A stretch of 64,000 nucleotides of DNA from Escherichia coli (GCF_029227855.1 NZ_CP074356.1), one strand, 5' to 3'. Counted from the stretch's first letter, positions 31,722-37,999 are shown. A program made the numbers and translations. The notes: generated by a model from the sequence alone, not told the origin.

Positions 31722-31725
31722 ACCA

Positions 31726-31765
31726 TACGCACAGAATGTGATGCCAGCACTCTGTGCGTATGCTT
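31726..31765. terminator. Bidirectional terminator between eamA and the GntR regulator
   Basis: Perfect 12-bp stem (CATACGCACAGA...TCTGTGCGTATG) with a flanking T-run. Confidence 0.65.
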
Positions 31766-32464
31766 TTATCGCGGGAAAAAGTACTTTACCTGGAACTCGA
31801 AAATATTGCTGTAAAGTAACGAATAATCCAGCGGAATAGAGTTACTGTCCACAGCCTGGGTCTGAATTTTAAGTATGGGATCCCGTGGGCTGATCCGTAA
31901 AATACTGGCGATTTCTGGGGTAGGAAAAGTAGGGGAGAAAGTTTCAAAGGTGCCAATGATTTTGATCCCGCATTCGTTCTCAATATACGAAAATTTGGAT
32001 TTTTGCATATGTGCTACGGTTAAATCAGGAAAACGTGCCACTGACATCCACGTTTCTTCTAATTGTGCTGCATTATCCTCAATGAATCGCAGTCTCTTTA
32101 TGTAATAAACCTGCTCACCAGTCACTAAATTCAGCTCAGTCGCAATAGGGGGAGAAGCATCCTGCACTTCAAATTTCATAATCTGACTTCCTGCCTCCTT
32201 GCCGCTTTTATGCGCAATTTCACTGAAGCTGTTCATGTGATCAATGTGTGCAACAAAATTCTTTTTTTGAATATATGTTCCTGAACCATGCTTTCTATGA
32301 ATAATTCCTTCGCCTTCCAGCAAGGATAATGCCTTACGCAGGGTATTACGCGAAACATTATAACGAACAGCGAGTTCAGCTTCTGACGGCAACAAATCAC
32401 CAACATGCCATGAATAGCCATTGATCTCGGATTTAAGTAAGCGGGCAATCTTTTGAAAAATCAC
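31766..32464 (-). CDS. GntR-family regulator (HutC subfamily, UTRA effector domain)
   Basis: 232 aa; N-terminal winged helix-turn-helix (LPSEAELAVRYNVSRNTLRKAL); divergent from the PTS genes; AT-rich. Confidence 0.85.
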   Translation of the reverse strand: MIFQKIARLLKSEINGYSWHVGDLLPSEAELAVRYNVSRNTLRKALSLLEGEGIIHRKHGSGTYIQKKNFVAHIDHMNSFSEIAHKSGKEAGSQIMKFEVQDASPPIATELNLVTGEQVYYIKRLRFIEDNAAQLEETWMSVARFPDLTVAHMQKSKFSYIENECGIKIIGTFETFSPTFPTPEIASILRISPRDPILKIQTQAVDSNSIPLDYSLLYSNIFEFQVKYFFPR

Positions 32465-32662
32465 TTTTGCACCTTTTAAGAGCCATTGAAAACAAGGAGT
32501 TGAGTCCTGATTGGTTTATCGTATGGCCGAGTCGTTTAATTATTACCCTGATGTTGAACAACTTTATTGCTGTATTACTGTGATCAATGTACCAGGACGT
32601 ATAGCTACTGCGGGATATGATATTTACACAATGTAATCTGTTATATACCAGTAAGGGAAAAT

Positions 32663-32974
32663 ATGAAAAAGATATTGTTAGTTTGCGCTGCGGGCATGTC
32701 AACCAGTATGCTGGTTAAACGTATGATTGATCATGCTAACGCTATTTCACTTGAAGTTAATATTTCCGCATTGGCGATTGCAGAGGCTAAAGGGAAAATT
32801 AAAAATAACGAAGTTGACGTTGTTTTACTTGGCCCGCAAGTTCGCTTTCAGAAACCAGAGATTGAAGCTGTTGCACAGGGGAAAATGCCTGTAGCTGTTA
32901 TCGAGATGAAAGACTATGGCACCATGAACGGACAGGCAGTTCTTGAATTTGCGATGAAACTACTGCAAGAGTAA
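32663..32974 (+). CDS. PTS lactose/cellobiose-family EIIB
   Basis: 103 aa; N-terminal MKKILLVCAAGMSTS with phospho-accepting Cys. Confidence 0.85.
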   Translation: MKKILLVCAAGMSTSMLVKRMIDHANAISLEVNISALAIAEAKGKIKNNEVDVVLLGPQVRFQKPEIEAVAQGKMPVAVIEMKDYGTMNGQAVLEFAMKLLQE

Positions 32975-33088
32975 GAATCTAATATTATTAAACTATTACC
33001 TGAACTAACTTTTCACACATCATAAAATGGATATGGCATACATGCTTTATTGGGATGTATAAATATCCAGAACAACAGGTATAAAAAA

Positions 33089-34805: not shown

Positions 34806-36473
34806 ATGAATATAAAGACGCTTAACGTCAGCCTTTTGTCTTTTTCTATTATTACAGCATTGTTTCCGTTGAACGCGTTGGCAACAAAATTAACCATTGA
34901 GCAGCGCCTTGAACTGCTTGAAAATGAATTGTCGCAAAATAAACAAGAGCTGAGAGCAACACAGAATGAACTGGGGGTATATAAATCCCGACTTTCGACC
35001 TTACAAAAAAGTATTACGGAAAATAAATACAAATCAGCCTCACTTGCTGAAATATCAGCGACATCTCCCGTCGCTGATAACATCAAAAATGAAAACGGTG
35101 AACAGAACTCGTCTGCCGCAGCGCATACTATAAATGGATCGCAGCAAGTTGCCGTTATTGAAAGTAAAGGCGACAAAACCACTATCGAAAGCGTGACCCT
35201 GAAAGATATCAGTAAATATATAAAGGATGATATTGGGTTCAGCTATCAGGGGTACTTCCGCTCAGGCTGGGGTACCGGAAATCATGGCTCACCACAAACT
35301 TATGCAGCGGGTTCTCTGGGACGTTTTGGTAACGAGATGAGCGGTTGGTTTGACTTAACCTTAAATCAGCGTGTTTATAATCAGGACGGTAAAACGGCAA
35401 ATGCGGTCGTTACCTATGATGGCAACGTAGGTGAGCAGTATAACGATGCCTGGTTTGGTGACAGTGCCAATGAAAATATCATGCAGTTCAGTGATATTTA
35501 TCTGACAACGCGAGGTTTTTTACCCTTCGCGCCAGAGGCAGACTTCTGGGTAGGCAAACATAAACTCCCGCAATATGAGATCCAAATGCTGGACTGGAAA
35601 ACCTTAACCACGGATGTCGCTGCGGGTGTGGGGATTGAAAACTGGGCACTTGGTGTAGGGCTGTTTGATATGTCCTTAAGCCGTGATGATGTCGATGTTT
35701 ACTCTCGTGATTTTACGCGTACCAGTCAGATGAATACCAATTCTGTGGATGTTCGTTATCGCAATATCCCGTTATGGGATGATGCAACATTATCATTAAT
35801 GGCTAAATATTCCGCACCAAATAAAACGGATCAACAACAAGATAATGAAAATGACGACAGTTATTTTGAAATGAAAGATAGCTGGATGCTGACTTCTGTT
35901 TTACGGCAAAACCTGCAACGCGATACGTTTAATGAATTTACGTTACAGGTTGCCAATAATTCCTATGCCAGCAGTTTTGCCAGTTTCTCAGATGCCAGTA
36001 ACACGATGGCGCATGGTCGCTATTACTATGGTGACCATACCAATGGGATCGCCTGGCGTTTAATCTCTCAGGGCGAGATGTATCTTACTGACAATATTAT
36101 TATGGCTAACGCGCTTGTCTATTCTCATGGCGAAGATGTTTATAGTTATGAAAGTGGCGCTCATAGTGATTTTGACAGTATTCGCACCGTAGTAAGACCG
36201 GCCTGGATCTGGAATACATGGAATCAGACGGGGCTTGAATTAGGCTGGTTTAAGCAACAGAACAAAACACAGCAGGGTGTAACACTAAATGAATCGGCTT
36301 ATAAAACGACACTCTGGCATGCATTGAAAGTGGGTGAAAGCATTTTAGGTTCACGACCAGAAATTCGCTTCTATGGAACGTATATCAATATTCTGGATAA
36401 CGAATTATCGAATTTTAAGTTTAATGAGAACAGCAAAGACGAGTTTATGGCCGGCATCCAGGCGGAAGTCTGA
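34806..36473 (+). CDS. Sugar-specific outer membrane porin (LamB/ScrY-like) with N-terminal coiled-coil extension
   Basis: 555 aa; signal peptide, then a heptad-like segment, then an aromatic-rich beta-barrel ending in Phe/Val. Confidence 0.7.
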
Positions 36474-36503
36474 TGGTAATCTATTTTAGTTAAGGAGTTG
36501 TGT

Positions 36504-37943
36504 ATGTCAGGATTTAAAAAAGGTTTTTTATGGGGCGGCGCGGTAGCCGCGCATCAGTTGGAAGGTGGCTGGAATGAAGGAGGAAAAGGCATCAGTATCG
36601 CTGATGTGATGACTGCTGGCGCTCACGGTGTGCCGCGTGAAGTGACAGAAGGCGTTATCGACGGACTTAATTATCCCAATCATGAAGCAATTGATTTTTA
36701 TCATCGCTATAAAACAGATATTCAGTTATTTGCCGAGATGGGATTCAAATGCTTTCGAACTTCCATTGCCTGGACACGAATCTTTCCGCAAGGTGACGAA
36801 CAGGAGCCGAATGAAGAGGGTTTAAAATTTTATGATGATCTGTTCGATGAATGCCTGAAGCAGGGAATGGAACCTGTGGTGACGCTTTCGCATTTTGAGA
36901 TGCCTTATCATCTGGTGACAAAATATGGTGGCTGGCGAAACCGTAAACTGATCGACTTTTTCATCCGCTTCGCATCAACGGTCTTCACGCGCTATAAAGA
37001 AAAAGTAAAGTACTGGATGACGTTTAACGAAATCAATAATCAGGTGAATTTCAGCGAAAGCCTGTGTCCATTTACTAATTCCGGTATCTTGTATTCGCCA
37101 GAGGAAGATATCAATGAGCGCGAACAAATAATGTACCAGGCGGTACATTACGAGTTAGTTGCCAGTGCCCTGGCGGTACAGACTGGAAAATCGATCAATC
37201 CTGAATTTAATATCGGCTGTATGATCGCCATGTGCCCCATCTATCCTCTGACGTGTGCACCCAACGATATGATGATGGCCACGAAAGCGATGCATCGTCG
37301 TTACTGGTTTACTGATGTTCATGCGCGTGGATATTATCCGCAACATATGCTGAATTACTTTGCCAGGAAAGGATTCAACCTCGATATCACACCAGAAGAT
37401 AATGCGATTCTTGCCAGAGGTTGTGTCGACTTTATCGGCTTTAGCTACTACATGTCTTTTACGACACAATTTTCGCCAGATAACCCGCAACTGGATTATG
37501 TTGAGCCACGAGATTTGGTCAGCAACCCTTATATCGATACATCCGAATGGGGATGGCAAATTGATCCGGCAGGGCTACGTTATTCACTCAACTGGTTCTG
37601 GGATCATTTCCAGTTGCCGCTGTTTATTGTCGAAAATGGATTTGGTGCGGTTGACCAGAGACAAGTTGACGGCACGGTGAACGATCACTATCGCATTGAT
37701 TACTTTGCTTCCCATATTCGGGAAATGAAAAAAGCCGTAGTCGAAGATGGTGTTGACTTAATTGGCTACACCCCATGGGGCTGTATTGACCTGGTTTCTG
37801 CCGGAACAGGGGAAATGAAAAAGCGCTACGGAATGATTTACGTCGATAAAGACAACGAAGGGAAGGGAACGCTGGAACGAATACGTAAAGCGTCGTTTTA
37901 CTGGTATCGGGATCTCATCGCCAACAATGGCGAAAATATTTGA
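36504..37943 (+). CDS. 6-phospho-beta-glucosidase (glycoside hydrolase family 1)
   Basis: 479 aa; GH1 motifs ([18 protein letters not shown] acid/base, ENG nucleophile); AAGGAG Shine-Dalgarno. Confidence 0.9.
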
Positions 37944-37960
37944 GACTTCAGGAAGATATT

Positions 37961-37990
37961 ACGGAGATATCAGGCTCTGTGATCAGAGCC
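37961..37990. terminator. Bidirectional terminator between the glucosidase gene and marB
   Basis: Perfect CAGGCTCTG-TGAT-CAGAGCCTG hairpin. Confidence 0.6.
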
Positions 37991-37999
37991 TGACAATAA

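Follow-up and report, generated by a model that had tools for sequence, protein, structure and literature searches.

The interval between eamA and marB in the Escherichia coli genome GCF_029227855.1 (NZ_CP074356.1) very probably carries the bgc locus, i.e., the regulator gene bgcR and the operon bgcEFIHA, an accessory beta-glucoside system built on a phosphotransferase system (PTS) of the lactose/cellobiose family. The analyzed stretch of DNA (hereafter, the window) comprises 64,000 nucleotides of one strand, of which the interval occupies positions 31722–37999. Open reading frame (ORF) calls and a comparison with K-12 identified six intact genes in this interval that have no K-12 counterpart, and both the gene set and the gene order match those of bgc: a divergent GntR-type regulator, followed by IIB, IIC, IIA, a porin, and a phospho-beta-glucosidase. 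The original prediction had proposed an accessory block of approximately 6.3 kb here, and its gene content and coordinates were borne out by the ORF calls and by NCBIfam and Pfam matches; its description as a self-contained accessory module for beta-glucoside uptake and hydrolysis, without an equivalent in K-12, was also supported. The accompanying view that the substrate was unknown was not, as bgc has been published and is summarized in two later sources (PMC3585215, PMC4488073). The element itself was already published in 2009, and RefSeq routinely annotates all six genes.

Expression of the bgc locus is reportedly CRP-dependent, and the activating bgc* mutations are said to be single promoter changes. 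The locus is likewise said to be prevalent in phylogroup B2, rare in commensals, and present also in Klebsiella, Enterobacter, and Citrobacter. The bgc operon reportedly includes, as its fifth gene, that of the porin BgcH. The locus (bgcR, bgcEFIHA) was reportedly described by Neelakanta, Sankar, and Schnetz in 2009 (Appl Environ Microbiol 75:2284) with strains i484 and CFT073.

In the literature, bgc is one of four beta-glucoside operons of E. coli and is described as cryptic (PMC4488073), BgcR, of the GntR type, positively regulates the five-gene bgc operon, and the reported substrates are cellobiose, arbutin, and salicin (PMC3585215). A six-gene set of CFT073, c1955–c1960, annotated as "PTS system, cellobiose specific", is missing from K-12 and O157:H7 and was found in UTI89, HS, SMS-3-5, and several B1 strains (PMC2831201). 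We found exactly the same six-gene block between marB and eamA in CFT073 (1796169–1802345) and in UTI89, with 97.1–97.3% identity to the window, and its presence in these two strains and absence from K-12 agree with the published strain pattern. The window carries a distinct allele, approximately 2.9% diverged from that of CFT073, in which the porin has 555 rather than 557 amino acids; nothing essential differs between the two. This allele occurs at ≥99% identity in only 303 genomes.

The protein families encoded by the block correspond to a complete PTS with its own regulator, porin, and hydrolase. The E. albertii orthologue of bgcR contains the Pfam GntR and UTRA domains, which places the regulator in the HutC subfamily, and its GTG start and Shine–Dalgarno sequence are kept in the 13 taxa of our alignment. 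BgcE has an active-site cysteine, Cys8, within CAAGMSTS, and its orthologue matches Pfam PTS_IIB; BgcI has an HAQDH motif with His76. The separate IIB, IIC, and IIA proteins, together with these residues, the NCBIfam matches, and the Pfam matches of the orthologues, assign the system to the Lac family (TC 4.A.3). The start of bgcF given here is that annotated by the Prokaryotic Genome Annotation Pipeline (PGAP) in a 100%-identical genome, the mechanically called ORF beginning at a TTG at 33050. The 114-bp spacer between bgcE and bgcF contains an imperfect hairpin, and the distance between the tblastn matches of these two genes varies from ~30 to ~320 bp across genera. BgcA, a member of glycoside hydrolase family 1 (GH1), has both catalytic glutamates of the family, the acid/base Glu176 (TFNEI) and the nucleophile Glu377 (VENG).

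The porin BgcH was less straightforward to classify. Carbohydrate porins of the LamB/ScrY group form 18-stranded barrels specific for sugars. It matched the NCBIfam LamB subfamily with an E value of 6.5e-58 over residues 146–555, at a score (197 bits) below the 394-bit cut-off. Its signal peptide precedes a conserved heptad segment (residues ~27–70), which a variable linker connects to the barrel region at 146–555, and the heptad pattern and family matches suggest a coiled coil joined to a LamB/ScrY-type barrel. ScrY, the sucrose porin, also has an N-terminal coiled coil. A phmmer search of the Protein Data Bank (PDB) with the single BgcH sequence gave no match, and a profile of 16 orthologues matched only ScrY (1A0S) in the same database, with an E value of 1.4e-7. 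ScrY is a LamB-family barrel, as BgcH probably is, but their sequence alignment is limited to the C-terminal third, and the resemblance is a lead and not a demonstrated structural match.

Table 1. Features of the eamA–marB interval and its flanking genes (positions in the window; aa, amino acids)
Feature	Position	Strand	Description	Evidence
eamA	30822–31721	+	left flank	
Left boundary spacer	31722–31765	.	eamA stop to bgcR stop	sequence
bgcR	31766–32464	-	GntR/HutC-family regulator, 232 aa, GTG start; divergent from operon	ORF, NCBIfam GntR-family matches
Control region	32465–32662	.	divergent bgcR–bgcE region, 198 bp, 36% GC	13-taxa alignment
bgcE	32663–32974	+	PTS EIIB, lactose/cellobiose family, 103 aa	NCBIfam TIGR00853, E 1.2e-24
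bgcF	33089–34411	+	PTS EIIC, lactose/cellobiose family, 440 aa	TIGR00410, 338 bits (cut-off 236)
bgcI	34439–34750	+	PTS EIIA, lactose/cellobiose family, 103 aa	NCBIfam NF007768, TIGR00823
bgcH	34806–36473	+	outer-membrane carbohydrate porin, 555 aa	NCBIfam LamB subfamily; PGAP "carbohydrate porin"
bgcA	36504–37943	+	GH1 6-phospho-beta-glucosidase, 479 aa	NF007154, 1034.5 bits (cut-off 624)
Right boundary spacer	37944–37999	.	bgcA stop to marB stop	sequence
marB	38000–38218	-	right flank	

Alignment of the divergent control region among the 13 taxa revealed three conserved elements in addition to the start signals of bgcR. The motif TGTGA is invariant and lies at 32579–32583, within a CRP-like site, TGTGAtcaatgTACCA (32579–32594). 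At 22 bp downstream of this site there is an invariant hexamer, TAnnnT, which reads TATGAT at 32616–32621 in the window. An inverted repeat, GTTCA-N17-TGAAC, is also conserved; its halves in the window are GTTTA (32534–32538) and TGAAC (32556–32560), and the left half is GTTTA in both E. coli and E. albertii. TATGAT is a candidate -10 hexamer, which would set the transcription start near 32628 and the center of the CRP-like site at approximately -41.5, a class II position. The activating bgc* change is predicted to fall within or beside this hexamer or the poor -35 region. The inverted repeat, centered at approximately -81, where an activator could plausibly bind, is a candidate BgcR operator.

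Several points weigh against this reading of the locus. The identification rests on second-hand literature summaries, gene content, the strain pattern, and the 2009 abstract, and we infer the correspondence between c1955–c1960 and the block from the gene count, annotation, and strain pattern. The distribution reportedly described in 2009, prevalent in B2 and rare in commensals, does not obviously match the 46% prevalence, spread over many lineages, found here; the sampling may differ. In the control region, the CRP-like site of the window fits the consensus at only three of five positions in its right half, and in E. coli the proposed operator has a degenerate left half. A degenerate operator half, a weak CRP right half, and the lack of a good -35 element would fit a weak, activator-dependent promoter.

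The borders of the block are sharp. In MG1655, eamA and marB are neighbors, as the original prediction had stated, and 30 bp separate them. A BLAST comparison of the K-12 region with the window showed that homology ends at 31711 and restarts at 37998, so that 6286 bp in the window replaces 38 bp of K-12. The last eamA codons can still be aligned past 31711: the protein ends in VRG-stop in the window, in Citrobacter koseri, and in a divergent empty allele of E. coli (see below), and in VGS-stop in K-12. The shared C-terminus indicates that the true left border lies just after the eamA stop. The block is also AT-rich, as had been predicted, with a GC content of 42.7% against 49.7% in the remainder of the window.

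Each border spacer contains a perfect hairpin. The left spacer has an 11-bp stem, ATACGCACAGA-15 nt-TCTGTGCGTAT (31725–31761), with predicted folding energies of -21.7 kcal/mol on the plus strand and -27.6 kcal/mol on the minus strand (z-scores of -4.5 and -6.9 against shuffled sequence). The right spacer has a 9-bp stem and a 4-nt loop, CAGGCTCTG-tgat-CAGAGCCTG (37970–37991), with folding energies of -18.1 and -20.2 kcal/mol. Compared with shuffled sequence, both hairpins are far more stable, at -18 to -28 kcal/mol and z-scores of -4.5 to -6.9. On the plus strand, the left hairpin is followed by GCTTTTAT, with a U-run (GCUUUUAU). The right hairpin has no U-tract on either strand, and a good one is confined to the plus-strand reading of the left hairpin, downstream of eamA; a scan for consensus terminators called neither hairpin, and its total counts equaled the expectation from shuffling. 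Therefore, of the "perfect bidirectional terminators" initially proposed, the perfect and stable hairpins stand at both ends, but a U-tract accompanies just one of the four orientations.

None of the six island ORFs is a mobility gene according to the ORF calls and NCBIfam, and the island contains no RNA family at the Rfam gathering threshold and no tRNA feature. Inspection of the junction sequences by eye gave no sign of a target duplication at the borders, where no dedicated repeat search was made. The block thus shows neither the integrase, transposase, or tRNA attachment site nor, by eye, the border direct repeats of a genomic island of the mobile-element type, and is better described as an indel/replacement polymorphism spread by homologous recombination.

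To compare the eamA–marB interval across E. coli, 5426 complete genomes were surveyed, and the island was scored as present when at least 80% of its length was found. By this definition, 2493 genomes (46%) carry it and 70 more have partial copies, whereas a contiguous empty site was found in 2854 of the 5426 (53%). The empty sites comprise 2484 of the K-12-like form and about 370–390 of a divergent allele. A group of 378 genomes unmatched by a 301-bp junction probe was considered as possible large deletions, but this was rejected when a longer probe showed the divergent empty allele. Three decayed copies were noted: in one, a deletion extends from the middle of eamA to 139 bp before the island end; in another, an IS1-associated deletion has left the 3' half of the porin gene and bgcA; and in the third, IS1 is inserted inside the island. 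The island is therefore ordinary, neither rare nor a recent acquisition, given its presence in 46% of genomes and the same junctions in E. albertii.

In E. albertii, the island has the same right-hand hairpin and marB junction, and both junctions were found in a second strain. The eamA–marB sites of C. koseri and E. fergusonii are empty and carry the hairpins GCCCCGC...GCGGGGC and AGCCCCT...AGGGGCT, and the 38-bp filler of K-12 contains GCCCCGA...TCGGGGC. Because the outgroup empty sites carry a K-12-like hairpin, the empty site appears to be ancestral and the island to be an insertion that replaced an old terminator, which supports the acquisition initially proposed. We also considered the 38-bp filler as a diverged copy of the right hairpin of the island; the identity by eye was ~39% and unconvincing, and the outgroups show the filler to be the ancestral terminator. 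The same six-gene module occurs at other positions in other genera: in Citrobacter sp. On2M it is flanked by tktB and nudK/aegA, and in Salmonella enterica subsp. diarizonae it adjoins nfsB. With tblastn, bgcR-EF(I)H was also detected in Kluyvera, Raoultella, Klebsiella, Enterobacter, Cedecea, Ewingella, and Buttiauxella. In several of these seven genera, a GH1 gene lies upstream and is encoded on the opposite strand, and none was found beside these genes in Kluyvera or Raoultella by the same search.

The divergence of the island follows that of its flanks. The identity to CFT073 is 97.14% for the island and 97.5% for the flanks, the synonymous substitution rate (dS) within E. coli is 0.06–0.15 and 0.02–0.13, respectively, and the identity to E. 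albertii is 79–85% for the island genes and 83–91% for the flanking genes. The insertion is thus old and predates the diversification of E. coli. These same observations, the parallel divergence and the identical junctions in E. albertii, would also be expected if the block were ancestral to E. coli and had been lost from K-12 by deletion instead of being acquired, and secondary deletions and IS1-mediated decay do occur. Such a loss is nevertheless unlikely. The 38 bp of K-12 is not part of the island allele, and its hairpin, GCCCCG...CGGGGC, is common to C. koseri, E. fergusonii, and the divergent empty allele represented by strain RM19259; a simple deletion cannot recreate this shared hairpin. 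The different loci of the module in Citrobacter and Salmonella and a GC content lower by ~7 points also speak for insertion. Whichever of the two is preferred, the event predates E. coli diversification, and some single lineages may have regained the empty allele by recombination.

Whether the operon is still functional bears on its designation as cryptic. For growth on salicin, bgc reportedly needs promoter-up mutations. Together with the cryptic label (PMC4488073), the imperfect operator and CRP half-sites in E. coli, and the existence of decayed copies, this could indicate that the operon is a decaying relic without a present function in this strain. We consider this quite unlikely, because none of the six ORFs is interrupted and the catalytic motifs are retained, and because all six genes have a ratio of nonsynonymous to synonymous substitution rates (dN/dS) of 0.02–0.13, both within E. 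coli and relative to E. albertii (e.g., 0.05–0.07 for bgcR, 0.02–0.07 for bgcF, and 0.06–0.09 for bgcA). Purifying selection on the entire set argues against the simple decay of a "cryptic" operon. Moreover, 2493 of the 2563 genomes with any part of the island keep at least 80% of it.

The block was assigned to bgc because the other beta-glucoside systems of E. coli, chb, asc, and bgl, all lack this combination of parts. The chb operon of K-12 (chbBCARFG) resembles bgc in having separate IIB, IIC, and IIA proteins of the lactose/cellobiose family, and the best NCBIfam equivalog matches of the island IIA and IIC include chitobiose components, but the island scores lie far below the chb equivalog cut-offs (for IIC, 281 vs. 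760 bits). Unlike bgc, chb is controlled by ChbR, which is of the AraC type, its phospho-glucosidase, ChbF, belongs to GH4, and it lacks a porin gene. The bgl operon (bglGFBH), which is at another locus, differs from bgc in its fused EII of the glucose family (BglF) and in its BglG antiterminator acting with RNA terminators, and it has no GntR activator. In other respects, bgl and bgc are similar: both are described as cryptic, are AT-rich, encode a GH1 phospho-beta-glucosidase and a porin (BglH, of the LamB family, in bgl; probably of the same family in bgc), and share arbutin and salicin as substrates (PMC2646131). Crypticity for cellobiose is likewise common to chb and bgc (PMC4488073). Among Gram-positive bacteria, gmuBACDREFG of Bacillus subtilis and bgu of Streptococcus pneumoniae also combine a GntR/HutC regulator, IIB/IIA/IIC, and GH1 for beta-linked disaccharides (PMC3585215); the regulators GmuR and BguR repress their operons, in contrast to BgcR, a reported activator, and the Gram-positive operons have no porin. 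E. coli does have several beta-glucoside systems (PMC4488073) and the RefSeq records carry no bgc gene names, yet it is extremely improbable that the block is a different, uncharacterized lactose/cellobiose-family PTS island merely like bgc in composition, with the published bgc elsewhere: a divergent GntR-type regulator with separate IIB/IIC/IIA, a porin, and GH1 occurs in the bgc summary and in none of chb, asc, and bgl, the CFT073 "cellobiose PTS" c1955–c1960 has the same strain distribution as the island, and the megablast median of one place per genome leaves no second similar locus.

For bgc, the following pathway can be proposed. Beta-glucosides (reportedly cellobiose, arbutin, and salicin) would pass the outer membrane by way of BgcH, a porin probably of the ScrY/LamB type. 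Uptake and phosphorylation at C6 would then be driven by a PTS relay from EI/HPr to BgcI (IIA, at His76), BgcE (IIB, at Cys8), and BgcF (IIC), and cytoplasmic BgcA would cleave the product into glucose-6-phosphate and glucose or the aglycone. The 198-bp divergent region would supply a weak, CRP-dependent promoter of class II, and transcription from it would require the HutC-type activator BgcR, probably bound to GTTCA-N17-TGAAC, centered ~81 bp upstream of the predicted start. In this scheme, the module would have been inserted just after the eamA stop before E. coli diversified, displacing the ancestral eamA/marB terminator hairpin, and would since have been passed on together with its flanks, as a polymorphism of presence and absence. 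The discovery value is small, since the operon, its regulator, CRP dependence, and substrates were published in 2009. What the present analysis adds is the census of 5426 genomes, the polarity of the indel, the purifying selection despite the "cryptic" label, and a junction with three haplotypes. The promoter, CRP site, and candidate BgcR operator predicted by comparison could guide footprinting or reporter work.

The third haplotype, the divergent empty allele mentioned above, found in about 389 genomes (e.g., RM19259), has an empty site at which the identity to K-12 and to the window alike is 88% for eamA, 90% for marB, and 94% for ydeE. In the same allele (RM19259 locus, 4619–7149), marA, marR, and ydeA are 98–99% identical, and ftrA and a rhodanese gene adjoin ydeE. 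The deep divergence of eamA, marB, and ydeE beside the near-identical marA, marR, and ydeA marks the junction as a spot of unusually deep allelic divergence and suggests either introgression or a very old allele. A more speculative and rather doubtful extension is that the junction is a long-lived polymorphism maintained by selection among the island, the K-12-type empty form, and the O157-like empty form with the 88% eamA, and that bgc is conditionally expressed and not a relic. If so, the natural substrate and inducer might be a beta-glucoside of plant or host origin that is encountered outside the host at low temperature.

Some further observations concern the flanks and the E. albertii copies. 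Between the window and CFT073, marB had a dN/dS of ~1.9 (dN 0.037, dS 0.020), an estimate that is noisy because the gene is short, and relative to E. albertii it was the least conserved flanking gene (82% amino acid identity). E. albertii NBRC 107761 lacks ~360 bp inside marC, at about 7777–7779 of the stretch examined. For E. albertii CP117628, gene calling left the 1.75-kb porin position (12903–14657 of the stretch examined) empty, and this copy may be a pseudogene.

Elsewhere in the window, positions 1–18013 have no megablast counterpart in the K-12 region and correspond to a lambdoid prophage tail module at the position of the K-12 Qin prophage. Its genes include those for a tape measure protein (3898–6984), a J-like central fiber (9369–12848), Lom (12916–13515), and a tail fiber (14261–16696), followed by a Pin-type invertase (18223–18813), and homology to K-12 restarts inside tfaQ. 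At 27222–27225, 477 bp of K-12 (1624735–1625211) is missing, removing most of ydeJ, and CFT073 and UTI89 have only fragments of ydeI and ydeJ there. Between yneG and dgcF, 498 bp (46316–46813) that is not in K-12 would extend dgcF at its N-terminus (ATG at 46382), which makes the K-12 dgcF look 5'-truncated. Finally, an Rfam STnc560 match (an Hfq-binding small RNA; 281 bits) lies between ydeE and dgcZ at 29011–29224, where K-12 has mgrR annotated, and was the sole Rfam match in window positions 26000–42000.

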